The translations under genes and the position numbers were made by a program. Source: Bryobacterales bacterium (GTDB lineage Bacteria > Acidobacteriota > Terriglobia > Bryobacterales > UBA6623). Taken from it: DNA of 64,000 nt. Where the stretch lies: positions 259,432 to 323,431 of the forward strand of contig CBDBIU010000002.1 in NCBI GenBank assembly GCA_965206025.1, given 5' to 3'. A model generated the notes under the pieces. It was given only the letters and a program-made list of their open reading frames with translations, searched no databases and was not told where the DNA came from. This document shows, piece by piece, positions 1,300 through 56,877 of this stretch; the stretch's first letter is position 1; each line of letters opens with the position of its first letter.

Positions 1300-2577
1300 T
1301 CAGGTCGACGCGCCGGCTCTGGCGAACACGTAGGGGCCTTCGGGGATCACGACGACGGATGCATCCTGGCCCAGTCGGCCAACCACATGATCGACGGCTC
1401 GCTGAGGATCGTCGAACGCAGGGCCCCAAAAACTGTGGCGGTCGTCGGGGTCGACGCCCGGTACACAGAACGCAAGGTTAGCTTTTTCGGCGACCAAGGC
1501 AAGCTTCTCGGCTTGCCATTGATCGATTACCACCGCGCTGTCAAGGAGTCTCTCCAGCAGGTTCTTGGAGTCGGGTGATCGACGAACCATAGCGCTGAAT
1601 TCGGCGCTGCCGAGACCCTCGCGGCAGGCCGCCACGAGCAAGATCGTGCCGCCGGGTTTGACGACGTGGGATGCCGCTGTCACACCCTTGACCGCCTGAT
1701 AGAAAGTCAGGTCCAGCGGGTATCCGCCCGAAGTGGTGATCACAACGTCGGCAGGCTCTTTCACGGCGGCCAACGTCGATTGGCGGACAAAGCCGACCCC
1801 GGCGGCGTGAGCCTCGAGCGGCTCGCCGGCAAAGACGGCGGCGATCCCGCGTGAGCGCGTCAGTGCGACGTCAACAATGAAATCATGGCCCGCCATGGAG
1901 GCGATCTCGATCAGTTCTCGATGCAAGGGGTTGTCGGGGAAGGAACCTTCGATGGCTTCGGGATCGCGCATGAAAAAAGGGCTGTGAAGCCGCTTGATGG
2001 TTTTCTCGCCCGACAGTCCGATAGAAAGCAACTTACGGCCGCCCGAGAAGCCGGCCATCAGGTGAGGCTCGACGAAGCCCAAGGTAATGTGCAGATCGGC
2101 GTCGAGCAATCGACGGTCGATGTAAACAGGCGTGCCGGTTTGGGTCTCTCCCAGATAGACGTTTTCGTCGTCGGCGCGGGCGCGGTGCGACTCCACCCGA
2201 TGGCGCGCCAAGATGTCGTCACCAACGATTTCCCCCAGCTCCTCACGAGTGGCCTCTCGATGGAGGCCCGTCGCTACGAGGACTGAGACCTCGGAAGATG
2301 GCATACCTCCCTTCTTGAGAGCAGCCAACACGTGGGGCAGGACAACGCGGTTCGGCGCGGGCCGCGTGATGTCGCAGACGGCGATCGCGGCGGACCGCTT
2401 CCCGCGAGCCAGCTCCTCGAGCGGGGGCGAGCCGATCGGATTCTGAAGCGCCTCGGCGATCGCTCGATCGGGTGATTCGATCTCCGTGCCAAACCGCGAC
2501 CGCAGTACGGTGGCGCGGAGACTGTCGGGGAGATCGACCTCGACTCCTGTCTGATCGAAATCCAGTTGGAGCCGCAT
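1300..2577 (-). CDS. LarA-family (DUF2088) nickel-pincer-cofactor dependent racemase/epimerase homologue
   Basis: 425 aa, the LarA length. Motifs ATGLHR, FVEPHLMAGFSGGRK and KRLHS align with the LarA catalytic His, cofactor-tethering Lys and Ni-ligand His positions. Confidence 0.75.
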   Translation of the reverse strand: MRLQLDFDQTGVEVDLPDSLRATVLRSRFGTEIESPDRAIAEALQNPIGSPPLEELARGKRSAAIAVCDITRPAPNRVVLPHVLAALKKGGMPSSEVSVLVATGLHREATREELGEIVGDDILARHRVESHRARADDENVYLGETQTGTPVYIDRRLLDADLHITLGFVEPHLMAGFSGGRKLLSIGLSGEKTIKRLHSPFFMRDPEAIEGSFPDNPLHRELIEIASMAGHDFIVDVALTRSRGIAAVFAGEPLEAHAAGVGFVRQSTLAAVKEPADVVITTSGGYPLDLTFYQAVKGVTAASHVVKPGGTILLVAACREGLGSAEFSAMVRRSPDSKNLLERLLDSAVVIDQWQAEKLALVAEKANLAFCVPGVDPDDRHSFWGPAFDDPQRAVDHVVGRLGQDASVVVIPEGPYVFARAGAST

Positions 2578-2615
2578 TCTATGGCCCAGCCATTCCCGAG
2601 GCGCAGCCGGCCGGA

Positions 2616-3482
2616 TCAGGCCGTCGCGCCGACCTCGCGAGCGACCCCTCGGATGAACCCGGCGGCTTCGTCATAGTCCTGCTCTTTCTCCAGGTGCTCG
2701 ATGATCAGCGGCATGTCGGGCGAGGCTTGTTCCATCCGCCTAATGTATGCGCGATAGTCGAGAACGCCGCGGCCCGGCAGAACCTCATGCAGAGTCACCA
2801 TGTTGGGCTGATGGTCTTGGATGACGTCTTTCGCGTGGCAAGAAACGATCCACGGCCCGAGCGTGTCGAAGCATCGATCAATCAGCTCGGCGGTGGAAAA
2901 ATAGAGCTGGGGATTGAGGATCGCATTCGCCGGGTCAAGGTGGGCAGCCAACCTCGGGTCGTCAACGGCGTTGATGAATTTCAGATAGACGTCCGGGCCG
3001 TTGAGGAACGTCCAGGGTGACATCTCGAGCGTCAGCTTCGTTCGTCGCGGGTTCACTTCCGCGAGTATCTCCCGGACCCAGGCGACGACGGCGTCGAAGG
3101 TGCTCTGGGCGAAGTTGTCAGGGTGAGGGGACACATGGCCCACTTCATCGTCTGTGCTGAAAGCCCCCACAACCGTGGCGCAACAAATCGCTCCTACTTC
3201 ATCGGCGACAGCGAGAGTTTCGGCAATGGTCTCGCGGTTCTGTTGCCGCTTCTCGGGCCGTAGGTCCAGCGGGTTGACCCAGGCATCGAATTCCGCCACG
3301 ACCACGTCGGCGCGAGCGAATTTTTCTTGGATCGTCCGGATCTTCTCGGTTTCCGAGATACTGACTTCCGGACAAGGCGCGCAACGATAGCCGCGCTTCA
3401 GGCACTCCGCCAGGTAGGCCTCGGGGTCGGCGAAATCCCCGTAGTCGGCTATCGTGGCGCCCAGTCTCACGGTTTCAATCAA
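2616..3482 (-). CDS. Sugar phosphate isomerase/epimerase (xylose isomerase-like TIM barrel)
   Basis: 288 aa with family-typical SCHAKDV and PLIIEHLE segments. TTG start overlaps the upstream gene by 8 nt. Confidence 0.7.
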   Translation of the reverse strand: MIETVRLGATIADYGDFADPEAYLAECLKRGYRCAPCPEVSISETEKIRTIQEKFARADVVVAEFDAWVNPLDLRPEKRQQNRETIAETLAVADEVGAICCATVVGAFSTDDEVGHVSPHPDNFAQSTFDAVVAWVREILAEVNPRRTKLTLEMSPWTFLNGPDVYLKFINAVDDPRLAAHLDPANAILNPQLYFSTAELIDRCFDTLGPWIVSCHAKDVIQDHQPNMVTLHEVLPGRGVLDYRAYIRRMEQASPDMPLIIEHLEKEQDYDEAAGFIRGVAREVGATA

Positions 3483-4359
3483 TCTCCTGCATCAGACGTT
3501 TCACGTACTCCACGTTGCGCTTCATGGCAACCCGGGGATCTTCCTCGCCTTGAAACTCGATGAGCATGTAACCGTCATATCGCCGACGACTCAACTCTTG
3601 CAGTGCGCCGGCAACATCGATGTCCCCGTCTTCGAGTGCCGTGTTCACATAGCGCCGGCCACTGTCGGCGTCGACGTAGCGCCCGACCGTTTCTTCCGGC
3701 CCGAGGAGCCTGTTGTTCTTCTGATGAACGTGGGCCAAATAAGGAATCGACTGCTCGAGAGCTTCCAATGGGTCTTCGTCAACGAATCTCGTTGCGCCGC
3801 AATCGTAAATGCGCCTCAGCCCCGGAGAGTCGATCTCTTGGCAGATGGCAGTCACTTGAGAGGCACGCCCTGTCAGCGCCCGCCCAGGGGCGTAATCGAG
3901 ATTTTCGATCAGAATTTTGACGCCGATATAATGAGCGTGCTCGGCGCACTTGCTGAGTCCGTCGATCATCCAGCTTCGCTGCTCGACGAGCGAGAAACCC
4001 TCCTTCACACAACCGGGTAGCAAGAACGCCATGGGCGCACCCAATTCGGCGGTCCGGTCCAGCAGCGCAAAAGCACTGTCGAGGGCCTTTTGCTGCTCGC
4101 CGGGGGGCACGGCCAGGTCAGCGTCGAAGATATAGCTGAAAACCGGCAAGCCTGCATCCTCCGCGATTTTTCGCGGATAGGAGGCCGGGGATTCCGTCCA
4201 GTAATCGTGCATCAGCTCGATGCCATCCATCCCCAACGTCCCGCTGAAAGCGATGAACTCTTCGGGCGTCAAGTAGCCCGCATGCGATCTGGGGACGAGA
4301 AAACCCTCTTTGTAAGCCCAATCCGCGTTATAGTCCGTGACGGTGATTCGGTTATTCAC
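3475..4359 (-). CDS. Sugar phosphate isomerase/epimerase (xylose isomerase-like TIM barrel)
   Basis: 294 aa with LAHVHQKN and MLIEFQGE segments. First gene of a three-gene minus-strand operon. Confidence 0.7.
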   Translation of the reverse strand: MNNRITVTDYNADWAYKEGFLVPRSHAGYLTPEEFIAFSGTLGMDGIELMHDYWTESPASYPRKIAEDAGLPVFSYIFDADLAVPPGEQQKALDSAFALLDRTAELGAPMAFLLPGCVKEGFSLVEQRSWMIDGLSKCAEHAHYIGVKILIENLDYAPGRALTGRASQVTAICQEIDSPGLRRIYDCGATRFVDEDPLEALEQSIPYLAHVHQKNNRLLGPEETVGRYVDADSGRRYVNTALEDGDIDVAGALQELSRRRYDGYMLIEFQGEEDPRVAMKRNVEYVKRLMQEID

Positions 4360-8846: not shown

Positions 8847-8885
8847 TAGCCCGCTTTTCTCGCCATGTGGTGAGAAAGCGGGCTA
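8847..8885. repeat. Mini element consisting only of the two TIRs of the MITE-like family (hairpin)
   Basis: TAGCCCGCTTTTCTCGCC-ATGT-GGTGAGAAAGCGGGCTA, flanked by TA, between convergent stops at 8818 and 8909. Confidence 0.7.
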
Positions 8886-8908: not shown

Positions 8909-9985
8909 CTACTCTAAGACCTTCACGCGGTGGTTCTCGCTGTCGCCGATGTAGACCCTCCCCTGGGAGTCGACGAAAACACCGTGAGGCCGCGCCAAGC
9001 CGCATTGCAGGGGATCGCCGTCGGGTCCGTCGTGTCGGGTCCCATCCCCCGCGACCGTGGTGATGGTTCCGTTCTTTTGGTCGATACGGCGAATCGTGTG
9101 GCTTTCGGTGTCGGCGATGTAGACGCCGCCCCCGGGGCCGACTGAGATGCCCTTCGGTCCCGACAAGAGGGCGTGCTTGGCGGGACCCCCGTCTCCCTGG
9201 TAACCCGGCTCGCCGGTGCCGGCCAGGTGATGAAGCGTCATCGCCTTCATCCTGATGCGATAGACGGCGTTGCCCTCTCGAAGAGCTACGTACATGTCTC
9301 CGCGAGCGTCGAAAGCAATCGCGCGCGGACCGTTGAGCGGAGTGCCTCGAACCGGTGCCCCGTCGGGCGTGGCGGCTTGGTCGCCGGTCCCCGCAAAGGT
9401 CTCGATCACGCCCGTCCGCAAATCAACTCGACGAATGCGATGGTTGCCGATGTCGGCGATGTAGAGTGACCCTTGGCCATCCATCTCGATACTGTGCGGA
9501 TGGTCGAGCAGAGCTTCAGTGGCCGGACCCCCGTCTCCACCGTAACCCGGCTTGCCTGTCCCGGCGAGAGTCGTGATTGATCCGGTTTTCCGGGACACCC
9601 GCCTGACGATGTGGTTTTGCATTTCGACGAAGTGCATGTTGCCTTCGCGGTCGAAACGCACTTCGTAAGGTTCATTGAGCGCCGCTTCGAGCGCCGCCTC
9701 GCCGTCTCCCGAGTAGCCTTGCTCGCCGTTTCCCGCCGCGGTGCTGATGATTCCCGTCTTCAGATCGAGCCTGCGGACCCGGTGGTTATCGACTTCGCAA
9801 ATGTAGAGGGCGCCGTCCGGCCCGATGGCAACGCCGTAGGTGTTGGCCTGCCGCGCAAGAATGCCGGGGCCGCCGTCTCCGGAAAAGCCGACTTCGCCCG
9901 TACCGGCTACGGTGCGAACCGTCTGCGGAAAGATCGGCGACGCCGCGAGGCCAAGGAGCAGAAAGGCGAGGAGACTCTTGGTCAT
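8909..9985 (-). CDS. Secreted NHL-repeat beta-propeller protein
   Basis: Signal peptide MTKSLLAFLLLGLAASPIFPQ. Six repeats of the pattern GDGGPA...L..P.G...D..G.LYIAD..NH.IRRV. Confidence 0.8.
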   Translation of the reverse strand: MTKSLLAFLLLGLAASPIFPQTVRTVAGTGEVGFSGDGGPGILARQANTYGVAIGPDGALYICEVDNHRVRRLDLKTGIISTAAGNGEQGYSGDGEAALEAALNEPYEVRFDREGNMHFVEMQNHIVRRVSRKTGSITTLAGTGKPGYGGDGGPATEALLDHPHSIEMDGQGSLYIADIGNHRIRRVDLRTGVIETFAGTGDQAATPDGAPVRGTPLNGPRAIAFDARGDMYVALREGNAVYRIRMKAMTLHHLAGTGEPGYQGDGGPAKHALLSGPKGISVGPGGGVYIADTESHTIRRIDQKNGTITTVAGDGTRHDGPDGDPLQCGLARPHGVFVDSQGRVYIGDSENHRVKVLE

Positions 9986-10031
9986 GAAGAATCGACAGGG
10001 GCTCACGAGGACTCCGTGAAGCGCATCAGCT

Positions 10032-10214
10032 TAGCCCGCATTTCTCACCACCTGACGGTCGAAGCACGCAATAGGCCCGCCATTACTGCGTTGCGCTTGC
10101 TCGCCGTGCTCAACGTACTGTTCAAGTACACCTCCGCGCGCCGAGCGGCGCGCGCCTTGTACCGAGGGGCCTCTCACGCACTTCGCCTCGCCACGTAGTG
10201 AGAAAAGCGCGCTA
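10032..10214 (+). mobile_element. MITE-like nonautonomous element, full copy A (183 bp)
   Basis: Termini TAGCCCGCATTTCTCACCAC ... GTAGTGAGAAAAGCGCGCTA are inverted repeats. Collinear with copies at 18772 and 57861, TA-flanked, no transposase ORF. Confidence 0.75.
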
Positions 10215-10529
10215 GGAGCCGCTGCCGTTCGTCTCGAAACCGCCTCGCATCAAGTCCGCTAGTTGATCGATGTTGCGCCCGAGAGCGTCGATTGTCTTGG
10301 TGGCGCGCTCCTGGGCCTCCTCCAGCCGCTGGATTCTCTCCTCCTGGTTCACCTGCATATCTTGTAAGCGCTGCTGTTGCTGGTCGAAGCGCACCTGGGC
10401 TTTGCCGATCGCGACTGCGTTGGTCGCCAGCTCATCCATTCTGACCGCAAGCGTATCCATTCTGACCGCGAAAACAGCCTCCTGCTCCAACAGAAACTGG
10501 ATGGTTTTCTCAACGTCCATTGGCTTCAT
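10212..10529 (-). CDS. Hypothetical coiled-coil protein
   Basis: 105 aa, heptad-rich (VRMDTLAVRMDELA, QQQQRLQDMQVNQEERIQRLEEAQ). No recognised family. Confidence 0.45.
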   Translation of the reverse strand: MKPMDVEKTIQFLLEQEAVFAVRMDTLAVRMDELATNAVAIGKAQVRFDQQQQRLQDMQVNQEERIQRLEEAQERATKTIDALGRNIDQLADLMRGGFETNGSGS

Positions 10530-18240: not shown

Positions 18241-18771
18241 AGAACTACCAACGGATCGCCCAATCAGCCGGGCATTTTCTCGTTCCAAAGCTATTTTCTT
18301 CGGCGCATTTCTTTGATTCTTACGGAGGATGAGACCGTCGATTTAGGTCGCTCGAACAGTTCTACGACGGAGTGGGGAAAGATCTCCTTCGATGCTGGAG
18401 TTGCGACTTGCAGCTGCTTCCGATTTGCCCGACATCCGGCGATCACAGGCCGTGTCGTAAGCCCTTGGCCGCAAGAACTGGCTGCAGCCCGCGGTGCGGC
18501 TGCTGGTTTTCGCCTCCTACCGACTGCTGGTGCGAAACAAGGGGTAATGGGTTCATGTCGGCAACCAATTTCTCCTTTTGCCTCCCGTAAAATGGAGCAA
18601 CTAATTGAAAACAAACGGTTAATCTTTCTAGGAAGAGGTCAGGAATTGGGTTTGTTCGGTAAACGTTTTCTCCTCCTTCTTTTCCCGTGTTGCCCCCCCT
18701 GCCGGAAACGTGAAGCGCAAGGGCCTTGCAGCGGTTCTATTTTATCAGCCGGGAACGAATCCCCACCCAGC

Positions 18772-18968
18772 TAGCCCGCATTTCTCACCACCTGACGGTC
18801 GAAGCATGCAATAGGCCCGCCATTACTGCGTTGCTCTTGCTCGCCGTGCTCAACGTAGGGTTCAACCCGCATTATTCAAGACAAGAAATGCGGCGCCGAG
18901 CGGCGCGCGCCTTGTACTGACGGGCCTCTCACGCACTTCGTCTCGCCACGTGGTGAGAAAAGCGGCTA
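18772..18968 (+). mobile_element. MITE-like element, full copy B (197 bp)
   Basis: Same TIRs (TAGCCCGCATTTCTCACCAC ... GTGGTGAGAAAAGCGGCTA), collinear with copies A and C, TA-flanked. Confidence 0.75.
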
Positions 18969-19016
18969 GACGGCCTAAGACATTGACAACATTAGGGGTT
19001 CCGTCACGGGACGGGC

Positions 19017-21674: not shown

Positions 21675-21730
21675 TAGCCCGCTTTTCTCACCACATGCTT
21701 CGACCGTCAGGCGGTGAGCAATGCGGGCTA
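21675..21730 (-). mobile_element. Internally deleted 56-bp copy of the MITE-like element, inverted orientation
   Basis: TAGCCCGCTTTTCTCACCAC-ATGCTTCGACCGTCAGG-C-GGTGAGCAATGCGGGCTA. The 17-nt core is the reverse complement of CCTGACGGTCGAAGCAT from the full copies. TA-flanked. Confidence 0.7.
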
Positions 21731-23904
21731 GGGATCATCAGTGTATTCTCCGCCGACCTTCCCGAATCGATAAACTTCGGCTGCTCAGGAGGCGGCTGAG
21801 CGGACACCCACCGTTTCGCCTGTTCACCTTCGCCTTAGCTGCTGTCGCTTGGCTCTTCCTGGTGCTTGTACGTCTGTGGTATCTACAGGTTGACCAGGGG
21901 GATCGCTTCGTCGAGAAGGCCAGGAATCAACACCAGGGAATCATCGAGATCCGTGCCGACCGCGGGGAAATTAGCGACCGGTTCGGGGAAAAACTCGCCT
22001 TCAGCACTCCGGTGGAATCCATCGCGGTCTTCCCTTCGCAGATACAAAATTCCGAGATCACGGCCCGCTTGCTGGCAAACGTTCTCGGAATAGACCGCCG
22101 CTTGCTCGATCGCAAGTTGGCGAAGCGGCAATTCCAATTTGTGAAGAGGCTGGCCGAGCCGGGCGAGGCCGAGCGGGTGCGAAATCTGAACCTGATCGGC
22201 ATTCACTTCGAGAAGGAAAGCAAGCGGTATTATCCCCAAGGGACGGTTGCTTCGCACATTTTGGGAGCGATCGGCGTCGAGCACCGCGGTCTGGCCGGTC
22301 TGGAGCAGACTTTCGATGATCCTCTGCAGGGCCAGCCGGGCAAACGGCTGGTGCACTTCGATGCCCGCCGGAGCCGCTATGCGGGCATCACCCTCGAGGA
22401 GCCGATTCCCGGCGCAAAGCTGGTGCTCACGATCGACCAAAGGATTCAAATGGTTGCCGAGGTCGAGTTGGCCAGGGCAGTTGCAGAAACGGGGGCCTCG
22501 GCCGGCACCATCGTCATCATGGACCCCCACAACGGCGAGCTGCTCGCGGTCGCCAACTGGCCGACCTTCAACCCGAACGAGCCGGCGCGAAATCGGCGGG
22601 ACCTAAAACGCCGCAAGAACTTTGCGCTCAGCACGCTGTTCGAGCCCGGCTCGAGCTTGAAGGCCGTGACCGTCGCCGCTGCTTTGGAAGAGAATCTCAC
22701 CCACCCCGACGAGGTGCTGGATTGCGAGATGGGAGCCATCTACGTCGGCGGACGCCGCATCCGTGACCACAAACCGTTTGGCGAACTGAGCGTTTCCGAG
22801 ATCCTGGCGAAGTCGAGCAATGTGGGAACCGTGAAGCTGGGCTTGCGACTGGGAGACCGGACACTGCATCGCTATTTAGTGCGGTTTGGATTTGGTCAAA
22901 AGACGGGATTGCCTCTTCCTGGTGAAACCGCGGGGCTTCTACGATCGCCCGAGCACTGGCAGGCGGATTCGATGGGATCCATCCCCATTGGTCAGGAGAT
23001 TGGCGTAAATGCAATTCAACTGGCGCGGGCGGTGTCGGTCATCGCCAGCGGGGGGTGGCTCGTCCAGCCGCGGATCATCGATCTGATGATCCACCCCGAC
23101 GGACGGGAACAGCGTCGGGAAGTAGCTCAACGGCGCCGCGTGATCTCCCCGAAGACCGCCGCAACCATGCGGGCCATGATGGAAGGTGTTGTTCGGGAGG
23201 GAACCGGCCGTCGCGCCGGAACCCCCGGCTACCGGGTGGCGGGCAAGACCGGCACCGCGCAGAAGGTGGACCCCGATACCGGCGCCTACTCGAAAACGGC
23301 TTATGTGCCAAGCTTCGTCGGCTTTGCGCCCGTCAATCAGCCGTCCATCACGGTTGTCATTGTTCTCGATTCGCCGATCGGCGACTACTACGGCGGCCTG
23401 GTCGCGGCTCCGGTCTTCCCCCGCGTCGCGACACAGGTTTTACGCTTTCGGGACGTCCCGCCCGAGCTCCCTGTTTCAGGACCTCCGCGGCCGGAGCCGC
23501 TGCCCCCGCCGGTGGAGATGGCGGACATGGTTGCGGCTGATCCTGCCCCGCGGGTCGAGGAATTGCAGGCTGGTCAGGTGATCCTTGTGGCCGCGGTGCA
23601 ACATCCTCGTACGCTGCCTCGGCAGAAGCATTCGCCCGGACCCGACTCTCCGCCGAGCAGCGGACGAGCGGCGACCTCGGGCAAGGGTGTTTCCGTCAGG
23701 GTCGCGGATCGCATGCCCGATTTTCGAGGGCAGACCGTTCGCCAAGTCGTCAGTCGCGCCACCGCTCTCGGATTGCAGCTCGAGTGGAGCGGCCATGGCC
23801 GGGCGAGGCGCCAGTGGCCGAGGGCGGGCGCCCCGGTTGCTCGCGGCCAGAAAGTCATTGTGGAGTTCGTCAGCACCTTGGCGGGAGACGTTCGCAAGCG
23901 ATGA
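21721..23904 (+). CDS. ftsI: Peptidoglycan D,D-transpeptidase FtsI (class B PBP) with a C-terminal PASTA-like domain
   Basis: SxxK (GSSLK), SxN (SSN) and KTGT motifs. N-terminal TM. C-terminal MPDFRGQTVRQVVSRATALGLQLEWSG. The start ATG lies inside the repeat at 21675-21730. Confidence 0.9.
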   Translation: MRARDHQCILRRPSRIDKLRLLRRRLSGHPPFRLFTFALAAVAWLFLVLVRLWYLQVDQGDRFVEKARNQHQGIIEIRADRGEISDRFGEKLAFSTPVESIAVFPSQIQNSEITARLLANVLGIDRRLLDRKLAKRQFQFVKRLAEPGEAERVRNLNLIGIHFEKESKRYYPQGTVASHILGAIGVEHRGLAGLEQTFDDPLQGQPGKRLVHFDARRSRYAGITLEEPIPGAKLVLTIDQRIQMVAEVELARAVAETGASAGTIVIMDPHNGELLAVANWPTFNPNEPARNRRDLKRRKNFALSTLFEPGSSLKAVTVAAALEENLTHPDEVLDCEMGAIYVGGRRIRDHKPFGELSVSEILAKSSNVGTVKLGLRLGDRTLHRYLVRFGFGQKTGLPLPGETAGLLRSPEHWQADSMGSIPIGQEIGVNAIQLARAVSVIASGGWLVQPRIIDLMIHPDGREQRREVAQRRRVISPKTAATMRAMMEGVVREGTGRRAGTPGYRVAGKTGTAQKVDPDTGAYSKTAYVPSFVGFAPVNQPSITVVIVLDSPIGDYYGGLVAAPVFPRVATQVLRFRDVPPELPVSGPPRPEPLPPPVEMADMVAADPAPRVEELQAGQVILVAAVQHPRTLPRQKHSPGPDSPPSSGRAATSGKGVSVRVADRMPDFRGQTVRQVVSRATALGLQLEWSGHGRARRQWPRAGAPVARGQKVIVEFVSTLAGDVRKR

Positions 23905-38825: not shown

Positions 38826-38856
38826 TAGCCTCGCCAGGCGGCGAGAAAAGCGGGCT
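38826..38856. repeat. Degenerate mini copy of the MITE-like TIR pair
   Basis: TAGCC-TCGCC-AGGC-GGCGAGAAAAGCGGGCT resembles the 8847 hairpin with an internal deletion. Confidence 0.4.
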
Positions 38857-38865
38857 GGCGCCAGT

Positions 38866-40414: not shown

Positions 40415-40688
40415 GATGCTGCTCGGCGCGTGGTCCGCGGGTAGGGGTCTTCAGGGGATGCTTGCTCGATACGGCGGCTAGTCGAGCTATCGTAGCGCAC
40501 TTTATGCGTGTAGGGCGCGGTCGATTGTCGGTCGCCCACCCGACAAGCACGGCTATCGTGACGAGCCGAAGAAACTTGCGAAACACGGCGAGACATTGTG
40601 CAATGCAGTGGAGAGGGAGTATGCTTTTGTGGGCAGCCTGGAGCCCTCAGCCACTGCCCCAGATCGGTTCACCGGGGAGCCACGCGTT

Positions 40689-46347: not shown

Positions 46348-46386
46348 TAGCCCGCCTTTCTCACCACGTGGCTGGCGGAAGCGGAA
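46348..46386. repeat. Degenerate mini copy of the MITE-like element
   Basis: TAGCCCGCCTTTCTCACCAC followed by a decayed right arm GTGGCTGGCGGAAGCGG. Confidence 0.45.
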
Positions 46387-46542
46387 GCAAATACCCGCCG
46401 TCAGGGATGTAGGTGCGCGATTCACCGCCCCCCCTTGCCGACATGCTGTACGCTGGGCGATGTACACAAACTGTTGCCGCCAGCCATGGCCGCCGGGCCT
46501 TTCGCCCCAATCGTTGTGACAGTTGTGAAAAACTCGGGCTAG

Positions 46543-47374: not shown

Positions 47375-48007
47375 CTACACCCCCAACTGCCACAGAATAT
47401 ACCCCAGGGCCTCTCGGGCATAGTATTTGCCGCGGGTCCACCTGTTGTCGCTGCCCCGGCTGCGGGGAGAGCCGTAGACTACGAGCCCTGTGGCTTCGAG
47501 CATGCTCTTGATGCGGTGGATGTGGTAGCCGTCGCTGACCACAATGCAAGAGGCAAGCCCCTTCTGCTTCATGATTTCGGCTACAGCCGCGGTGCTTTCT
47601 ACCGTCGATCGTCCTCGTGAGTCGGCGATCACTGCTTCGGCAGGCACGTCCTGTTGCAGGAGATAGTCCCGGCCGACTTCCCCTTCAGCAAACTTCGAGT
47701 CGCGTCCATGGCCTCCGGTGGTGATGATGCGAGGCGCCAACCGTTGCCGATACAGTTCCAGCGCATGGTCGAGCCGGGCCTTGAGAACCGGGGAGGGCCG
47801 CCCCAAGTATTGCGCGGCTCCGAGCACCACGATCGCGTCCGCGGGTCGCGCCTCGTCGACCTGAGCCTGGCGCCAAACCTGGTAGTAGACCGTGGCGAAG
47901 TAGGAGGCACTCAGCGCGGCGAGGGTCAGCAAGGGAATCAGCAGCAGCTTCCGGCGCCTCGAGCGCCGCGACCCATCTACGACAGGTGTTGGGCTAGACG
48001 TTGCCAC
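47375..48007 (-). CDS. YdcF/ElyC (DUF218) family protein
   Basis: TM anchor followed by ADAIVVLGAAQY...RIITTGGHG...VVSDGYHIHR. Confidence 0.75.
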   Translation of the reverse strand: MATSSPTPVVDGSRRSRRRKLLLIPLLTLAALSASYFATVYYQVWRQAQVDEARPADAIVVLGAAQYLGRPSPVLKARLDHALELYRQRLAPRIITTGGHGRDSKFAEGEVGRDYLLQQDVPAEAVIADSRGRSTVESTAAVAEIMKQKGLASCIVVSDGYHIHRIKSMLEATGLVVYGSPRSRGSDNRWTRGKYYAREALGYILWQLGV

Positions 48008-48627
48008 GGTAGCGATCCTTGCCTCACAATGCGAGGGGGGCTGACGGTGAGGTCCAGGATGGTCGACGGCTGAAGGCGAGGAGCCGAGCCGCCATCAACA
48101 ATATAATAAACGCTGTCTCTGAGTTGCCGGGCCGCCTCAGCGGCCGTCGAAGCCGGGGGCCGGCCCGAGAGATTCGCGCTGGTTCCCGTCAGCACACCGC
48201 CGGAGGCGCGGATGATCGCCCGCGTCAATGGAGCAGCTGGCACGCGAACAGCCACCGTGCAGGTGCCGGCCGTAATTTCGCGAGGAACTTTCGGTCCCGC
48301 GGGAAGGATCACCGTCAGAGGCCCGGGCCAACATTCAGCGGCGATCTTCGGCAGAGGGGCGGGCACACCCGCCACGAGCCGCGGCAACCGCTCCAACGAA
48401 TCGATCAGCAGCAGCAGGGGCTGATTCTTGTCCCTCTTCTTGACGTGGAAGATTCGCTCGACGGCTGCCGGACAAAAGGGGTCCGCGGCTAATCCGTAGA
48501 CGGTATCGGTGGGGATGACGAGCAATTCCCCGCGACGGATCGCGGCGGCGGCTAGGCGCACCCTCCGCCACTGCGGCCTCGCCGGATGGATGGGCAAGAT
48601 TCGGGCGCGTCTGAAACTGGCGGCCAC
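47977..48627 (-). CDS. tsaC: L-threonylcarbamoyladenylate synthase (TsaC/YrdC family)
   Basis: LVIPTDTVYGLAADP, VAVRVP, LTGTSANLSGRPP. Confidence 0.85.
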   Translation of the reverse strand: MAASFRRARILPIHPARPQWRRVRLAAAAIRRGELLVIPTDTVYGLAADPFCPAAVERIFHVKKRDKNQPLLLLIDSLERLPRLVAGVPAPLPKIAAECWPGPLTVILPAGPKVPREITAGTCTVAVRVPAAPLTRAIIRASGGVLTGTSANLSGRPPASTAAEAARQLRDSVYYIVDGGSAPRLQPSTILDLTVSPPRIVRQGSLPWQRLAQHLS

Positions 48628-48857
48628 AAAGCAATTCTATTACGATTACAACGGGCGTCGAGTTTCACCCCGGCCACAGTCGTAGCACCTAACCCCCCTC
48701 TGCATCAAATAGTTCCCGCAGTTTACCGCATACCGCCGCCAACAGCCCAAATCGCCGAATGTAGCGGTTTCAGGGGTGCTCCAGGGGGTAGTGCGGGCTG
48801 CAAGTGGTTGATAAGTGGTGCCAGGGGGCACCACGGTAGGGGTGTAATTGTCCTACG

Positions 48858-49697
48858 ATGAAGGTCGCCGTGGCCGTGTCGAGCCGAAGGGTCGTTTCGA
48901 GCCCCGCCAACAATCTGCTGAAGGACGTCCGCCGTTCGGTCGCCCAAGGCACGCTCACCGCGGACGGATTGTGGGTGGCGGAGAACTTCCACCTTCTCGA
49001 AGAAGCGTTGCGAAGCGACCTCGAAGTACCGACGGTTCTCGCCTCGACAAAGGTCCAGGGCGCTGTCGAACGCCATGTCGGCAAGCTGAAAAGCGTCCGC
49101 CTGACCGTAGTCGCCGAGCCGCTGTTCCGGCGGATCGCCGGAACCGAGTCCACGCAGGGAGTTATCTCGCTGGTGCGTCCGCCGGCTTGGCGGCTGCAGG
49201 ATGTGTTTCGACGCTCCCCGCTGGTGGTTGCCCTAGACGGATTGCAAGACCCCGGCAACGCTGGAGCGATCGTGCGCTCGGCCGAGGCCTTTGGCGCGAC
49301 GGGGGTCATTTTCCTGGCCGGTACGGCAAGCCCGTTCAACGCCAAGACCTTGCGCGCTTCCGCCGGATCGCTGTTTCGAGTGCCTTTTGTGTTCGGCATC
49401 GACACGAAGATCGTCCGGGCAGCGTTCCGCCAGCGAAAAATCCAAAGGGTGGCGGCCACGCCCCGCGCCAAGCTGCAACTCGACCGCTATGGGTGGAATG
49501 CGCCCACCGTGCTCATGATCGGATCGGAGGCTCACGGCGTGAGCGAAACTTTCCTGCAAGGCGTCCAACGGATTCGCGTTCCCACCACGGGCGTCGAATC
49601 ACTAAACGCCGCCGCGGCCGCAGCGGTGATCCTCTACGAAGCGGCGCGGCAAAGAGCGCGGGGTGACTTAGGCGAAACCGCCCGGCGCGGCCGATGA
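48858..49697 (+). CDS. TrmH/SpoU-family RNA 2'-O-methyltransferase
   Basis: LQDPGNAGAIVRSAEAFG, LMIGSEAHGVS, ESLNAAAAAAVILYE. Confidence 0.8.
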   Translation: MKVAVAVSSRRVVSSPANNLLKDVRRSVAQGTLTADGLWVAENFHLLEEALRSDLEVPTVLASTKVQGAVERHVGKLKSVRLTVVAEPLFRRIAGTESTQGVISLVRPPAWRLQDVFRRSPLVVALDGLQDPGNAGAIVRSAEAFGATGVIFLAGTASPFNAKTLRASAGSLFRVPFVFGIDTKIVRAAFRQRKIQRVAATPRAKLQLDRYGWNAPTVLMIGSEAHGVSETFLQGVQRIRVPTTGVESLNAAAAAAVILYEAARQRARGDLGETARRGR

Positions 49698-51019
49698 GCC
49701 TATTCGAACCCATCGACGCAAAGCTCGACAGCACGGACCCGACTCGTCCTTTGGCCGAGCGGATGCGCCCCCAGACGCTGGATGAGTTTGTTGGACAGGA
49801 GCACATTCTTGGGCCCGGAAAACCCTTGCGCCTTCAGGTCGAACGCGACCGGCTGAGCTCGATCATCCTTTGGGGTCCTCCCGGCGTGGGGAAGACGACG
49901 CTGGCGCGGATCATTGCCAAGAAGACTCACTGCGTATTCGTTCCCTTCAGCGCGGTGCTGAGCAGCATCAAGACGGTAAAGGCCGTCATGGCCGACGCCG
50001 AGCGGATGCGCCGGCAAGGCCCTCGCACCATCGTCTTCGTCGACGAGATTCACCGTTTCAACAAAGCCCAGCAGGACGCCTTTCTGCCCTACGTCGAGCG
50101 AGGCGACATCACTTTGATCGGGGCGACGACCGAAAACCCCTCGTTCGAAATCATCTCGGCTCTGCTGTCGCGCACCAAGGTTTACATTCTGCGAGCGCTG
50201 ACGGTGGAAGAGATGACGCGAATCTTGCGTCGCGCTCTGGAAGACAACCAGCGAGGGTTGGGGCAAGCCGATTCGACGGTCGGCGACGATATGCTCGAGC
50301 GGATGGCGCTGTTTTCGAACGGCGACGCCCGGAACGCCCTGCAGACCCTCGAAACCGCTGTCGCGGCGGCGGCCGGCTCACCGATCACCGAAGAGCTGCT
50401 CGAGAACGTTTTGCAGCGCAAGATGCTGCCCTACGACAAGGCCGGGGAAGAACACTACAACCTGATTTCGGCGCTGCACAAATCCGTTCGCTCGAGCGAT
50501 CCCGACGCCGCTTTGTACTGGCTGGTGCGCATGCTCGAAGCCGGTGAAGACCGGCTTTACATTGCACGCCGGCTGGCAAGGATGGCTTTTGAAGACATCG
50601 GCCTCGCCGACCCGCGCGCACTGGAACAAGCCATGGCGGGGGTCGAGGCGTTTCGCTTCATCGGCGAGCCGGAAGGCGACCTTGTGCTGGCGCAGGTGGC
50701 GGTCTACCTGGCGATGGCCCCCAAATCCGACGCCGTCTATGGCGCCTACAACCGCGTCAAGCAGGATGTCGAGGGGGCCGCGGCCGAGCCCGTGCCGATG
50801 CAGCTTCGCAACGCTCCCACGAAACTCATGAAAGACTCGGGGTACGGGGAAGGCTACCGCCACGCCCACCAATTCGAGGATGCCGTCACGGACATGGAGT
50901 GCCTGCCCGACTCCCTGCGCGGACGCCGCTACTACTCCCCGACCGGCCGCGGCTTCGAGAAGCGAATTGCCGAAAAGCTGGAGGAGCTTCGCAAGAGAAA
51001 GGGTCACGAGGACGAGTAG
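49694..51019 (+). CDS. rarA: Replication-associated recombination protein A (AAA+ ATPase)
   Basis: LAERMRPQTLDEFVGQEHILG, ILWGPPGVGKTTLARIIA, VFVDEIHRFNKAQQD. Confidence 0.9.
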   Translation: MSLFEPIDAKLDSTDPTRPLAERMRPQTLDEFVGQEHILGPGKPLRLQVERDRLSSIILWGPPGVGKTTLARIIAKKTHCVFVPFSAVLSSIKTVKAVMADAERMRRQGPRTIVFVDEIHRFNKAQQDAFLPYVERGDITLIGATTENPSFEIISALLSRTKVYILRALTVEEMTRILRRALEDNQRGLGQADSTVGDDMLERMALFSNGDARNALQTLETAVAAAAGSPITEELLENVLQRKMLPYDKAGEEHYNLISALHKSVRSSDPDAALYWLVRMLEAGEDRLYIARRLARMAFEDIGLADPRALEQAMAGVEAFRFIGEPEGDLVLAQVAVYLAMAPKSDAVYGAYNRVKQDVEGAAAEPVPMQLRNAPTKLMKDSGYGEGYRHAHQFEDAVTDMECLPDSLRGRRYYSPTGRGFEKRIAEKLEELRKRKGHEDE

Positions 51020-51175
51020 CGGATACGCCTCCGCCACGCCGTAAGACGACCGATGTCCAGCGATGCGCGATTCGTTCGGGGCCGCCAGGGGGTCCCGCCC
51101 CGCTTCCAGCGGCGATTCTTCTGTGGCGCATCCACTTTCCCCTTGACAGCCGAAAGAAAATCTAGCGTACTGTAA

Positions 51176-51193
51176 ACATACCGTACAGTATGT
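51176..51193. promoter_or_regulatory. Candidate TetR operator 1 (imperfect palindrome)
   Basis: ACATACCGTACAGTATGT lies 30 nt upstream of the tetR-family start, nested in TACTGTA-N9-TACAGTA. TTGACA at 51143-51148. Near-identical to the site at 51892 in inverted orientation. Confidence 0.55.
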
Positions 51194-51222
51194 AAATTAG
51201 CTGAGCATCAGGAAATCCAGCC

Positions 51223-51846
51223 GTGGCCGTCAAGCAAAACCCGGAACAGACACGCCAGAGGATCTTGGCCGCGGCGTTCGAGGAAGTCTATCGCAACGGC
51301 TTCCGCAGTGCCAGCTTGGAGCGTATCCTAGCTGACACGGGCCTGACCAAGGGGGCTCTCTACCACCACTTTCCGCACAAGGACGCTCTGGGGCACGCTG
51401 TCATCGACGAGGTCCTGCACCGACAGATCTGGGACCGGTGGATCGAGCCCATGTTGCAGAACGAGGATCCGATCACGGGCCTGCAGAGCGCTCTTCGCGG
51501 GCTGACAGCCGATGAAGTGAAGTTTGTGTGTGAAAAAGGATGTCCACTCAACAACTTAGCGCAGGAAATGTCTCCGGTGGACCCCGTCTTTCGGGAAAAA
51601 ATTCAGGCCATCTACCGCCTGTGGCGGGAAAAAATCGGAGAGGCGCTGGCGCGCGGCCAAGGGCGGGGCTACGTTCGCGAAGACATCGATTGCGGCAAGA
51701 CGGCCACATTCATTATCTCTTCCCTAGAGGGTGCGGCCGGCCTCGCTAAGGGCATGGGTGAGCCGGCTGTTGTCGCCGCCTGCGTGGAGGGAATCGACGG
51801 CTACTTGGAGTCACTCCGATCGCATCAACTAGTCCCCGTTAGCTGA
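51223..51846 (+). CDS. TetR/AcrR-family transcriptional regulator
   Basis: N-terminal HTH RQRILAAAFEEVYRNGFRSASLERILADTGLTKGALYHHF. GTG start. Confidence 0.85.
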   Translation: MAVKQNPEQTRQRILAAAFEEVYRNGFRSASLERILADTGLTKGALYHHFPHKDALGHAVIDEVLHRQIWDRWIEPMLQNEDPITGLQSALRGLTADEVKFVCEKGCPLNNLAQEMSPVDPVFREKIQAIYRLWREKIGEALARGQGRGYVREDIDCGKTATFIISSLEGAAGLAKGMGEPAVVAACVEGIDGYLESLRSHQLVPVS

Positions 51847-51891
51847 GAGACCATGATCCTATCCGTACGCAGAGACAAGGCTCACCCAATT

Positions 51892-51909
51892 ACATACTGT
51901 ATGGTATGG
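51892..51909. promoter_or_regulatory. Candidate TetR operator 2
   Basis: ACATACTGTATGGTATGG. Its reverse complement CATACCATACAGTATGTAA matches operator 1 (CATACCGTACAGTATGTAA) at all but one position. Lies 33 nt upstream of the RND gene. Confidence 0.55.
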
Positions 51910-51941
51910 AAATCGACTTCTGTTTTCAGGAGAAATAGGAG

Positions 51942-54305
51942 ATGAACGAACAGAAAGATTCCTCGACACTTGCCGAGCGCTACTCCGCTTGGGTGATGCG
52001 CCGTCGCTGGTTCGTGCTTGCAGTCTCGCTGGCGATCGGAATGCTGGCCGCCAGTGGCGCGACTCGGCTGGGATTCATCGACGAGTACCGCGTTTTCTTT
52101 GGACCCGACAACCCACAGCTACTGGCCTTCGACGAAGTGGAAGCCATCTACACGAAGAACGACAACATCCTGATCGTCGTGGAAACGCCGGACAACAACG
52201 CCTTCAGCAGGCAGACTCTCGCAGTGGTCGAGGAAATCACAGCCGAAGCCTGGAAGATTCCCTTCGCCATCCGAGTCGATTCGCTGACCAACTTTCAGCA
52301 CACCTATGCCGAAGGCGAGGACGACCTGATCGTCGAGGACCTGGTCACGGAAGCGAACGGACTCAGCGCGGAGCAACTGGCTCAAAAAAAGGTCGTCGCG
52401 CTGAAGGAGCCGCAGGTGCTCAATCGCATGGTGACCCGCGCCGCCGATGTGGTCGGCATCAACGTAACCCTTCAGCTGCCGCGCAAGGAAGCCGACGAAA
52501 CGGCCCGCGCCGTGGCATTCGCTCGCGAGTTGGGCGCCCGGATCGAGGCGGAAAACCCCGGTTTCAAGATCCGCATGACGGGCATGGTCATGCTCAACAA
52601 CGCCTTTCAAGAGTCGGCGATGAAGGACATGGCAACGCTCACGCCGCTGATGTACGTGGTCATCATTCTCGTCATGGCGGTGCTTCTGCGGTCGGTTTCC
52701 GGCACCTTGGCAACCGTTTCGGTGATCGGCCTCTCGGTAACAAGCGGGCTCGGTCTTGCCGGCTGGGCTGGGATGTCCCTGACGCCGCCTTCGACCGCCT
52801 CGATCACCATGATCATGACGCTGGCGGTCGCCGACTCGATCCATGTGCTCGTATCGATGATCCAAGAGATGCGCCGCGGGAAAAGCAAGCGTGAGGCGAT
52901 CGCTGAAAGCCTTCGAATCAATTCGAACCCCGTCTTTCTGACCAGCATCACGACGGTCATCGGGTTCCTGAGCATGAACTTCAGTGAAGTGCCGCCGTTG
53001 CGTGATTTGGGCAACATCGCCGCCACGGGCGTTGCGGCGGCGTGGTTCTATTCGATGACTTTTCTGCCGGCCCTCATCTCGATCTTGCCGCTGAAAGTCA
53101 AGCAACGCGAGGAGCAAGCGGCGCCGGCGTTGGTAGACTCGCTGGCCGAGTTCGTTATTCGAAAGCGCAAAGCTCTGCTGGCGGGCGGCGCCGTCACCGC
53201 GCTGGCACTGGTGGGCATGCTGCCGTTGAACGATCTGAACGACCAGTTTGTCGACTACTTCGATCACTCGATGGCATTCCGCCAGGATTCAGACTTCGCC
53301 ATGGAGAAGTTGAGCGGCATCTACCAGATTCATTATTCGCTGGGCGCGGGGGAAAGCAGCGGCATCAGCGAGCCGAGCTACTTAGAAAAGTTGGAAGAGT
53401 TCGCCCAGTGGTATCGACGGCAGCCGGGCGTTGTTCACGTTTTCACCATCAGCGACGTGTTCAAACGGCTCAACATGAACATGCACGCCGATGCCGCCGA
53501 ATATTACCGCATTCCAGCCGGCCGCGAACTCGCGGCGCAGTACTTGCTGCTCTACGAAATGTCGCTTCCCTACGGACTGGACCTCAACGACACGATCAAC
53601 GTCGACAAATCGGCTACGCGGTTGATGGTCACCACGCAGAACGTCAAGTCGAAGCACCTAATCAACCTGGTGCAGTCGGGTGAGAGCTGGCTGCGGGAAA
53701 ACGCTCCGGCGCACATGTTCGCCCGCGGAGTGGGACCCGGCGTGATGTTCTCCTACATCTCGGCACGCAACATCCGCGGCATGCTGATCGGGACGCTGCT
53801 GGCCATCGGCTTGATCGGCGTTACGCTGATCGCCGCGCTGCGCAGCGTGAAGTACGGGCTGCTGAGCTTCCTGCCCAACCTGATTCCGGGCGCCATGGCC
53901 TTCGGGCTATGGGGAGGGCTCGTCGGGGAGGTGAACCTCGGCCTATCGATCGTCAGCGGCATGTGCATCGGGATCGTGGTCGACGACACGGTACACTTTC
54001 TCAGCAAATACATTCGCGCGAAGCAGGAACACGGGCTGTGCTGCGAAGACGCGGTTCGCTACGCCTTCAAGCGAGTGGGCGCGGCGCTCATCGTAACGTC
54101 AGTGGTACTCGCCGCCGGCTTCACGGTTCTGGCGCAATCCACGTTTGGATTCAACGGCGACATGGGCCAGATGGCGGCGATCATTGTCGTTATCGCCCTA
54201 ACCGCGGACTTGCTGCTGCTGCCTCCGCTGCTGATGCGGGTCGAAGGAGGTGATTCCCAGGCCGACAAGGAAAAACTACAACAGGTTGAGTCCGGCGTGG
54301 CCTGA
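51942..54305 (+). CDS. RND-superfamily exporter (MMPL/COG1033-type, two 6-TM bundles)
   Basis: 787 aa with two hydrophobic bundles separated by large loops. AGGAG RBS. Confidence 0.75.
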   Translation: MNEQKDSSTLAERYSAWVMRRRWFVLAVSLAIGMLAASGATRLGFIDEYRVFFGPDNPQLLAFDEVEAIYTKNDNILIVVETPDNNAFSRQTLAVVEEITAEAWKIPFAIRVDSLTNFQHTYAEGEDDLIVEDLVTEANGLSAEQLAQKKVVALKEPQVLNRMVTRAADVVGINVTLQLPRKEADETARAVAFARELGARIEAENPGFKIRMTGMVMLNNAFQESAMKDMATLTPLMYVVIILVMAVLLRSVSGTLATVSVIGLSVTSGLGLAGWAGMSLTPPSTASITMIMTLAVADSIHVLVSMIQEMRRGKSKREAIAESLRINSNPVFLTSITTVIGFLSMNFSEVPPLRDLGNIAATGVAAAWFYSMTFLPALISILPLKVKQREEQAAPALVDSLAEFVIRKRKALLAGGAVTALALVGMLPLNDLNDQFVDYFDHSMAFRQDSDFAMEKLSGIYQIHYSLGAGESSGISEPSYLEKLEEFAQWYRRQPGVVHVFTISDVFKRLNMNMHADAAEYYRIPAGRELAAQYLLLYEMSLPYGLDLNDTINVDKSATRLMVTTQNVKSKHLINLVQSGESWLRENAPAHMFARGVGPGVMFSYISARNIRGMLIGTLLAIGLIGVTLIAALRSVKYGLLSFLPNLIPGAMAFGLWGGLVGEVNLGLSIVSGMCIGIVVDDTVHFLSKYIRAKQEHGLCCEDAVRYAFKRVGAALIVTSVVLAAGFTVLAQSTFGFNGDMGQMAAIIVVIALTADLLLLPPLLMRVEGGDSQADKEKLQQVESGVA

Positions 54306-54346
54306 CGCCCCGCGAGCCCACAATCACTACGATCAGGAGAAACAAC

Positions 54347-55147
54347 ATGAGCAACAAAAGATTGACCACGATGACTGTAGTCCCCGTCTTGACGATGGCG
54401 CTGCTCGCCCCGCCGCTGCCGGCGGCAAGTGTCGAGGAGCGAGGCCACCAGATCGCCGCCGAGTGGGACAGGCGAGACACGGGCTGGAAAAACATGACCG
54501 CAAATCTGCAAATGGTACTCCGCAATCGACACGGCCAAGAAAGCACGCGCCGGCTGCGGACCAAGTCGCTTGAGATGGAAGGTGACGGAGACAAGCTGTT
54601 GATAACGTTCGATCACCCGCGCGACGTGAAGGGAACCAACTTCCTAAGCTTCACGCATGTCACCGGGCCGGACGACCAATGGCTCTATTTGCCCGCGCTC
54701 AAGCGGATCAAGCGCATCGCGTCGAACAACAAGTCCGGCCCTTTCATGGGCAGCGAGTTCGCCTACGAGGACCTAGCTTCGCAGGAAGTCGACAAATACA
54801 CTTACAAGTTCTTGCGGGAAGAGACGGTAAACGGGCGACCGGCGTACGCGGTCGAACGCGTCCCTATCGACAAGAAGTCCGGTTACACGCGTCAAGAAGT
54901 CTGGTTTGACAAAGAGACTTACCGGCCCGAGCAGATCAAGTACTACGATCGCAAAGGCGACCTGCTCAAGACGCTCGCCTTCAGCAAATACAAGCAGTAC
55001 GTCGACGAATACTGGCGGCCGGACGAACAGTTCATGGAGAACCACCAGACCGGCAAGAGCACCCTCCTCGTCTGGGAGAACTATCAATTTCAGACCGGGC
55101 TCGTCGACCGCGACTTCGATCGCAACAGCCTGCGCCGGGCGAGGTAA
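54347..55147 (+). CDS. LolA-like outer membrane lipoprotein-sorting protein
   Basis: Signal peptide. DDQWLYLPALKRIKRIASNNKSGPFMGSEFAYEDL is typical of the LolA-like family that accompanies COG1033 exporters. Confidence 0.65.
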   Translation: MSNKRLTTMTVVPVLTMALLAPPLPAASVEERGHQIAAEWDRRDTGWKNMTANLQMVLRNRHGQESTRRLRTKSLEMEGDGDKLLITFDHPRDVKGTNFLSFTHVTGPDDQWLYLPALKRIKRIASNNKSGPFMGSEFAYEDLASQEVDKYTYKFLREETVNGRPAYAVERVPIDKKSGYTRQEVWFDKETYRPEQIKYYDRKGDLLKTLAFSKYKQYVDEYWRPDEQFMENHQTGKSTLLVWENYQFQTGLVDRDFDRNSLRRAR

Positions 55148-55154
55148 TCCTCGA

Positions 55155-56366: not shown

Positions 56367-56392
56367 CCCCGCTCACGGCCTACCACCACATC

Positions 56393-56442
56393 TAGCCCGC
56401 ATTTCTCACCAGTTGAGGGTCGAAGCACGTTATAGCCCGCCC
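56393..56442 (+). repeat. Truncated left end of the MITE-like element
   Basis: TAGCCCGCATTTCTCACCAGTTGAGGGTCGAAGCACGTTATAGCCCGCC matches the first ~50 nt of the full copies, then diverges. Confidence 0.6.
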
Positions 56443-56877
56443 GGCGGCAAAGCTACTTTTGTACCCGACTGGTCCGATTCGTCGAATTTGCGCATCCGAC
56501 CGCCCCGCCGTACGCGAAACCAACTTGAAAATCACTGATTCCCTTTGGGTTACACGAAGTTGGGTTTGTTTGGTAATTCTTGTTGTCTCGTTGGTTCGCG
56601 GCTTCCGGCGACCCGTGCTCGAGTAGGCCCCGAATGCTTCGTGTACTCAATTACATTGTACCTTGCCGATCCAAGGAGGCCCCGGTGCCGATGGGGCTAA
56701 ACTGCTTTTAGTGAGACACTTAGGGTGTATGACATGGACCCCTCGTTTCTCGCCGCCGGGCGGCCGAAGCAGGCCATACACCCGCCGTCTGGTGACGACT
56801 CAAAGTAGGGACAAGGCTCGCGCTTGTCCTCCATCAACTGCCGGTCACGCTTGCCGCCCGCGCGGGCGTCTTCTACC

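Follow-up and report, generated by a model that had tools for sequence, protein, structure and literature searches.

The 64-kb stretch of DNA analysed here, which comes from a soil acidobacterium (Bryobacterales, Acidobacteriota) and is referred to as the window, carries four full-length copies (183–197 bp), two mini TIR–TIR derivatives, and approximately five fragments of a single family of repeats (Table 1). Three collinear copies are positioned at 10032–10214, 18772–18968, and 57861–58057, where a previous sequence-only reading had placed them. With copy 3 as the blastn query, the first of these is matched at 87% identity and the second at 91%. Further matches are located at 8847, 21675–21730, 38830, 46348, 56393, 56740 (weak), 61628, and 62796, and include all of the derivatives listed in the sequence-only reading (8847, 21675, 56393, 61628, and 62796). 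The match at 46348–46541 is an additional, fourth full-length copy, which belongs to a different subfamily. The 11 loci in 64 kb correspond to about one locus per 6 kb. The 20-mer TAGCCCGCATTTCTCACCAC has 10 matches in the window with up to three mismatches, compared with 0.03 expected from shuffles, and the earlier count of 10 or more loci was correct.

The repeats are 33–200 bp long, below the limit of about 600 bp for MITEs, lack the capacity to encode a transposase, and are bounded by TIRs of 17–20 nt. As had been proposed, the elements do not include a transposase gene, and no transposase homologue is present anywhere in the window. The two ends quoted previously as mutual reverse complements agree at 19 of 20 positions and differ at position 9, with A opposed to T. 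Real right ends contain one to three changes beyond the mismatch at position 9, and the right terminus of copy 2 has one G deleted. The derivatives show that the repeats of the window decay into mini and truncated forms.

The claim that all copies are intergenic holds for genes called on the basis of GC3, none of which is overlapped by an element, but not for one start codon in the list of open reading frames. The ATG at 21721 of an FtsI-like reading frame (21721–23904) lies within the right TIR (...GCAATGCGGGCTAG, 21711–21731) of the 50-bp mini element. A gene is called from the same start position in the related contig L210. Either the start codon of the FtsI-like gene is supplied by the MITE, or the true start is located downstream.

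Table 1 Features of the repeat family in the window, and transposase loci in related contigs (coordinates refer to the window unless a contig is named).
Feature	Position	Strand	Description
MITE copy 1, full-length	10035–10211	+	Element proper CCCGC...GCGCG; TTAG 10031–10034, CTAG 10212–10215; neighbouring genes divergent
MITE copy 2, full-length	18775–18965	+	197-bp variant with central insert; CTAG 18771–18774, CTAG 18966–18969
MITE copy 3, full-length	57864–58054	+	CTAG 57860–57863, CTAA 58055–58058; between convergent epimerase and AspRS genes
Full-length copy of second subfamily	46351–46538	+	Clusters with L057 2056–2248; same TIR type; flanks TTAG, CTAG
Mini TIR–TIR derivative, 33 bp	8850–8882	.	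Flanks TTAG, CTAA; neighbouring genes convergent
Internally deleted derivative, 50 bp	21678–21727	.	Flanks CTAG, CTAG; kept in L210
Right-end fragment	38830–38857	+	In a region that differs by an indel from L006/L210
Left-end fragment (truncated copy)	56396–56438	+	Preceded by CTAG; orthologous fragment in L209
Right-end fragment	61628–61672	+	Variant terminus GGGCTAGAAAAGCGGG, followed by TTAG
Right-half fragment, ~100 bp	62796–62897	+	Variant terminus GGGCTAGAAAAGCGGG as at 61628, followed by TTAG
Empty target site	40478–40481	.	Single CTAG; 200-bp MITE at the same place in a 95% identical relative
Transposase sites at synteny breaks	L209 13523–16653; L206 18378–20638; L211 11525–12469, 19218–19655		
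Distant Bryobacterales IS of the IS1380 family	L048 2102–3774; L095 1004–2677, 6175–7791; L212 11889–13334		

Insertion polymorphism between close relatives

Positions 20387–40521 and 47376–60534 of the window are 93–96% identical to contigs of the Bryobacterales MAG CBDFJA01 (L006, L209, L210, and L211). The proteins encoded by the window share 90%-identity clusters with many long-read contigs, and orthologous loci were found through the members of these clusters. The best match in a metagenome scan with AspRS has a protein identity of 76%, which is too distant for the comparison of empty sites, and neither the AddB-like protein nor the AspRS of the window has an exact database record.

The window contains a single CTAG at 40478–40481, in contrast to a 95% identical relative, in which a 200-bp MITE is flanked by CTAG on each side (L006 6094–6293, equivalent to L210 20209–20408); the surrounding sequences match on both sides of the insertion. 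Copy 3 is absent from relatives that are approximately 89% identical to the window (L206–L208), in which the spacer between the epimerase and AspRS genes is 123 bp long. The site reads CA-CTAT-ATTTTCC in these relatives, compared with CA-CTAG-MITE-CTAA-CTTACTTCC in the window. The two presence/absence polymorphisms relative to close relatives show precise insertion. Copy 3 (L209) and the 50-bp mini element (L210) are common to the window and its 95–96% identical relative. The possibility that the truncated copy at 56393 is derived from a full copy retained in the relative was rejected, because the copy is truncated in both genomes.

The dispersal of the repeats over 11 loci and the empty sites identified by comparison with L006 and L206–L208 are properties of MITEs. 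The polymorphism between closely related genomes bears out the earlier description of a non-autonomous, TIR-bounded, multi-copy mobile family. The sequence-only reading had also suggested that related strains should contain empty sites with a single TA. Empty sites are present at two loci; however, the site at 40478 is a single CTAG, which is not diagnostic of TA.

The segment 8820–10012 of the window, which includes the 33-bp mini element and an NHL-repeat gene (8909–10006), is missing from a 96% identical relative (L211 11150–11255). A MITE and an IS481-type transposase gene follow the ThiO-like gene of L211 in the place of this segment, and MITE sites seem to be places where rearrangements accumulate. 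Synteny breaks in close relatives contain genes or fragments of genes for IS3-, IS21-, IS481-, and IS630-type (PF13358) transposases. In two Bryobacterales MAGs, a copy of the MITE is split by a group II intron (L081 2237–4360 and L014 5567–6539); the intron of L081 includes a 506-residue-long reverse-transcriptase/maturase reading frame (2549–4069).

Element termini and the duplicated target

Full-length IS that encode a DDE transposase of the IS1380 family carry at both ends, without any mismatch, the terminal 17 nt of the MITE (CCCGCATTTCTCACCAC). IS with identical ends are present in a Planctomycetaceae MAG and in metagenome contigs, and those with slightly diverged ends occur on Pseudomonas and rhizobial plasmids. 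The 1.75-kb IS of the Planctomycetaceae MAG (L012 1515–3268) has CTAG in front of CCCGCATTTCTCACCAC at its left boundary and CTAG after GGTGAGAAATGCGGG at its right boundary. Its 475-residue-long transposase matches the profiles PF13701 (E = 5.6e-162) and NCBIfam NF033539, “IS1380 family transposase” (E = 1.7e-116). Proteins 85–96% identical to the L012 transposase are very abundant in metagenomes; they head the list of metagenome matches (8000 matches listed, E ≤ 1e-50), and are typically encoded on contigs of 1.7–2.0 kb, a length that is the signature of a multi-copy IS. The IS copies fetched from this list, L201–L205, have the same 17-nt ends as the IS of L012. The MITEs thus have their TIRs in common with an autonomous element, over 17 nt at both IS ends in L012, L202, L204, and L205.

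Relatives of the L012 transposase encoded on finished plasmids, with sequence identities of 50–59%, belong to IS with related ends. The IS of Pseudomonas putida pKF715A and of a Stutzerimonas megaplasmid start with CCCGCATTTCTCACAG after CTAG and have a perfect 20-nt inverted repeat. The ends of a Bradyrhizobium IS and of a rhizobial IS are CCCGCATTTTTCACA and CCCGAATCTCTCAAAG, respectively, and that of IS1380A is CGCGGAAATCTCACA, preceded by its target TCGA (L114). The MITE end CCCGCATTTCTCAC starts with CC, as is typical of the approximately 15-nt-long related TIRs of the IS1380 family. It is identical to the end of the P. putida IS over 14 nt and to that of the Bradyrhizobium IS at 13 of 14 positions; the corresponding segment of IS1380A is CGCGGAAATCTCAC. 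The TIR of the window is thus a terminus conserved within a single clade of the IS1380 family, which explains the recurrence of the 20-mer across phyla.

The repeats of the window are very probably non-coding, 183–197-bp-long MITEs of the IS1380 type, the outer 17 nt of which are TIRs recognized by one clade of IS1380-family DDE transposases. The similarity between the MITEs and the full-length IS ends after approximately 17–20 nt, and their interiors are unrelated. Because the similarity is confined to the TIRs, it does not establish direct descent of the MITEs from the IS by internal deletion. A full-length IS would provide the transposase in trans; this enzyme would bind both TIRs and insert the element into YTAR, in most cases the palindrome CTAG, by cuts with a 4-bp stagger, which would duplicate the target tetranucleotide. 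From the identity of the TIRs, we infer mobilization in trans by a transposase of this clade and, with it, the present or past occurrence of a cognate IS in the lineage of the window. A cognate transposase was not found in the 64-kb window or, among the tblastn matches listed, in about 60 fetched Bryobacterales loci. The IS1380-family genes of Bryobacterales loci among the matches listed (L048, L095, and L212) encode proteins that are 25–30% identical to that of L012 and belong to IS with other ends. The ends of the L048 and L095 IS are CCCGCATTTTCAATTT, and their insertion was accompanied by 5-bp duplications (ATCAA and TTCAT).

The presence of TA next to every copy, which was described in the sequence-only reading and is confirmed here, had been the basis for assigning the repeats to Tc1/mariner–IS630. 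According to this alternative, the repeats are Stowaway-like MITEs with G...C termini, which are mobilized by an IS630/Tc1-mariner transposase and duplicate TA only. However, this TA forms the central part of a tetranucleotide next to the element, which is CTAG, TTAG, or CTAA. A CTAG target looks alike after duplication of 2 bp (TA) and of 4 bp, so that the two can be told apart at non-canonical targets only, and the CTAG empty site is consistent with both. The flanks of 91 non-redundant paired MITE copies were compared. In 50 of these, the left and right 4-mers are the same (39 CTAG, 7 TTAG, and 4 CTAA), as expected for target-site duplications of MITEs. The 11 identical pairs other than CTAG were not reached in any of 10,000 permutations (p < 1e-4). 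A left T at position 1 predicts a right T (12/10/4/65; Fisher p = 2e-6), and A at position 4 on one side predicts A on the other (Fisher p = 0.004).

Full-length IS provide additional information about the target. Two copies on finished rhizobial plasmids (L196 and L197), inserted at independent sites, are flanked by TTAG on both sides, and a related copy (L199) is flanked by CTAG on both sides. Because the flanks of the MITEs covary as direct repeats, and IS copies are enclosed by TTAG, the element proper is CCCGC...GCGGG and insertion duplicates all four nucleotides of YTAR, which is CTAG in most cases and has TA only as its core. Members of the IS1380 family have CC ends and generate 4–5-bp duplications, which fits the 4-bp duplication of YTAR, whereas IS630/Tc1-mariner does not. 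The base following GCGGG varies among the copies of one IS (L202–L205), which suggests that it belongs to the flank rather than to the element; this evidence is weak, because metagenome assemblies of repeats can be chimeric. For the same reason, the mixed flanks of L202–L205 (CTAG/TTAA and CTAG/CTAA) were left out of the evidence for the duplication. A megablast search of plasmids with the full-length P. putida IS identified two full copies, which are too few for duplication statistics.

The flanking 4-mers differ from each other in 41 of the 91 copies. In the most common discordant class (TTAG/CTAG and its mirror image CTAG/CTAA; 11 of 91), the G or C next to the element is kept and the outer base varies. 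Copy 3, with flanks CTAG/CTAA and the empty site CTAT, belongs to this class. The discordant flanks are tentatively attributed to decay, because the window copies differ from each other by 9–13%. This class is the one pattern that is explained more simply by a duplication of TA only, which accommodates about 12 copies, the mini element at 8850 (TTAG...CTAA), and copy 3 without extra mutations. By analogy with piggyBac, the combination of a donor-like CTAG on one side with a target-like 4-mer on the other could instead, with lower probability, be the footprint of 4-nt overhangs brought along from the donor site.

In favour of mobilization by IS630, the close relative also contains fragments of DDE_3 (PF13358) genes. 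However, the TIR (CCCGCATTTCTCACC ends) does not enclose the fragments of L209 and L211, and none is present in the window; they do not represent the IS630-family transposase with matching ends for which the sequence-only reading had suggested a search. The TIRs are ends of the IS1380 family, unlike those of any IS630 element seen. The base beside GCGGG tracks the opposite flank (seven TTAG/TTAG and four CTAA/CTAA; p = 2e-6), and the finished IS copies carry TTAG...TTAG, which is at odds with a duplication restricted to TA. Neither a TA-only duplication nor IS630-matching TIRs characterize the family. The assignment to IS630 is largely refuted and must be regarded as very unlikely.

The flanking CTAG has decayed to CTGG or CCAG in approximately seven copies from the set of 91 elements. 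Changes in this direction are expected from very-short-patch-type repair, a process by which many bacteria become depleted of CTAG. In L079 (1851–1888) and L021 (4428–4429), two abutting elements have one CTAG in common (...GCGGGCTAGCCCGC...), an arrangement that would result from the insertion of one element into the CTAG duplicated by another.

Hairpin fold and distribution of the elements

The full copies each fold over their entire length into a single imperfect hairpin (z scores of −5.1 to −9.5 relative to dinucleotide shuffles). An oriented alignment of 37 sequences includes two Bryobacterales sublineages, a subfamily from Gammaproteobacteria (86–95% identical among six MAGs), one element from Deltaproteobacteria, and one further element from Acidobacteriota. 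In the RNAalifold consensus of the 37 copies, 95% of the cells are paired, compared with 36–47% when the partners are slid by one to three columns. Changes on both sides are found in 18 of 33 pairs, relative to 9.1 ± 1.7 in shuffles. The arms of the hairpin co-evolve, as observed in few independent lineages, and the covariation could stem from arm-to-arm copying during the formation of subfamilies. The central insert of the 197–200-bp variants (CCCGCATTATTCAAGnAATGCGG; window 57958–57980, 18866–18890, and 62811–62835; L006, L005, L011, and L038) resembles a tiny TIR–TIR pair, composed of 8 nt from the start and 8 nt from the end of the TIR, at the tip of the hairpin.

One strand folds better than the other, by 5–40 kcal/mol, in all 37 copies, and this strand is opposite to the “+” orientation used for the window. 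The G-U wobble positions that cause the asymmetry are mostly shared among the copies, and are therefore inherited; the asymmetry was rejected as independent evidence of selection on RNA. The elements are located in 24 tandem, 14 convergent, and 8 divergent gene contexts. In tandem contexts, the better-folding strand shows no bias relative to the sense strand of the neighbouring genes (14 against 10). The elements do not contain a promoter or terminator consensus, and the sole terminator-like match, at 58076–58090 on the minus strand, is outside copy 3. No Rfam family matches the window at gathering scores, and none matches two of the copies at E ≤ 1. The check that the sequence-only reading had proposed against a structured-RNA family thus identified no described RNA counterpart.

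The scan for TAGCCCGCNTTTCTCACCNC in one genome per species, with groups assigned from record titles, identified at least 112 stretches: at least 45 in Bryobacterales/Solibacteraceae, at least 14 in other Acidobacteriota, at least 13 in Planctomycetota, at least 34 in Gammaproteobacteria/Pseudomonadota, at least two each in Verrucomicrobia and Alphaproteobacteria, and at least one each in Deltaproteobacteria and unclassified records. Most of the matches listed are inverted pairs positioned 130–260 bp apart, and correspond to MITE-like elements. The taxon labels are those of MAG records; the closed chromosomes OY762279, OZ219866, and OZ252030 are included. The colinear 182–183-bp form is present in three groups, Acidobacteriota, Gammaproteobacteria, and Deltaproteobacteria, with mutual identities of approximately 68–72%. 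The MITE had no matches in plasmids in a distant blastn search and just two in viral contigs.

The end-to-end fold (z = −5 to −9.5), the covariation of the arms (double changes in 18 of 33 pairs), the length of 182–183 bp kept across three groups at 68–72% identity, and the better folding of one strand in 37 of 37 copies are features expected of a structured nucleic acid used by the host. The hairpin could be under selection as an RNA, acting as a stabilizer, processing site, or attenuator, or as a DNA structure, in addition to or instead of the mobility of the element, and the TIRs would be incidental. However, the insertion polymorphism and target duplications demonstrate mobility, the positions are neither orthologous nor fixed, and the gene contexts are mixed. 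The absence of an orientation bias and of an Rfam match, the mostly inherited wobbles, and the derivation of the covariation from a handful of subfamilies also speak against selection by the host, which is improbable. REP/BIME-like palindromes spread by a RAYT transposase (IS200/IS605-type Y1) are likewise intergenic, palindromic, and abundant; however, the elements are 180–200 bp rather than 20–40 bp long, lack the GTAG/CGTC head, duplicate their target, and end in TIRs of the DDE type that are identical to those of IS1380. The duplication and the matching TIRs exclude this origin, which has next to no likelihood.

Within the preferred reading of the repeats as IS1380-type MITEs, the hairpin may matter beyond the TIRs. 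It is doubtful, although conceivable, that the approximately 182-bp form is not mere debris, but a single architecture combining IS1380 TIRs, a covarying hairpin, and a conserved length that has persisted or spread across MAGs of at least three groups. If so, the hairpin would be required for efficient mobilization by a clade related to piggyBac, or would function as a transcript.

Comparison with known mobile elements

The repeats are MITEs in every tested respect, and their termini and target duplication make them non-autonomous members of the IS1380 family. They are an ordinary kind of element, represented by a new family member with a few unexplained details. The literature searched contains no description of an IS1380-derived MITE or of the family from the window. 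IS1380 appears to be added to the IS families that have spawned MITEs, and a very abundant repeat of Bryobacterales is assigned to its correct family. With a locus roughly every 6 kb, the repeat will fragment assemblies, give rise to rearrangements, and cause mis-annotation, as in the case of the start codon inside a TIR. The 33–50-bp TIR-only mini elements are natural substrates for determining the requirements of the transposase.

The closest counterparts of the window MITEs are members of the IS1380 family (IS1380A, IS1247, and ISEcp1; PF13701 and NF033539), the termini of which start with 5'-CC and have 15–20-nt TIRs ending in ...TCTCAC. Both duplicate 4 bp at a palindromic tetranucleotide, which is TCGA for IS1380A and CTAG/TTAG for the window MITEs, and the 17-nt ends of the MITEs recur in full-length members (L012 and L201–L205). 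Unlike them, the window MITEs lack a transposase gene, are one tenth of the length, and have an unrelated interior. IS1247, ISEcp1, and the IS of L048/L095 differ in generating 5-bp duplications without a preference for CTAG.

Correia/NEMIS elements of Neisseria, ERIC, RUP, and MITEAba12 are also short, non-coding, TIR-bounded, abundant, and intergenic, form long hairpins, and give rise to derivatives that are truncated or have lost internal segments. The target duplicated by Correia and IS630-type MITEs is TA, and the ends of other MITEs match those of IS5, IS4, IS1, or Tn3. By contrast, the family from the window matches the ends of IS1380 and duplicates YTAR.

The eukaryotic piggyBac elements, which have TTAA-flanked MITEs of their own, insert into TTAA, a palindromic target with a central TA, duplicate its 4 bp, and have ends organized as TTAA-CCC...GGG-TTAA. 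The window MITEs resemble them in their CTAG/YTAR specificity, 4-bp duplication, and CCC...GGG ends. The hairpin and overhang chemistry of piggyBac is not known to operate in IS1380. IS1380 transposases have been used as the prokaryotic outgroup of piggyBac (PMC10813416). The family described here has a prokaryotic host and differs from piggyBac in the use of CTAG/YTAR rather than TTAA as the target; it documents a CTAG/YTAR-specific clade of IS1380 that duplicates 4 bp, and sharpens the parallel with the TTAA-specific piggyBac of eukaryotes.
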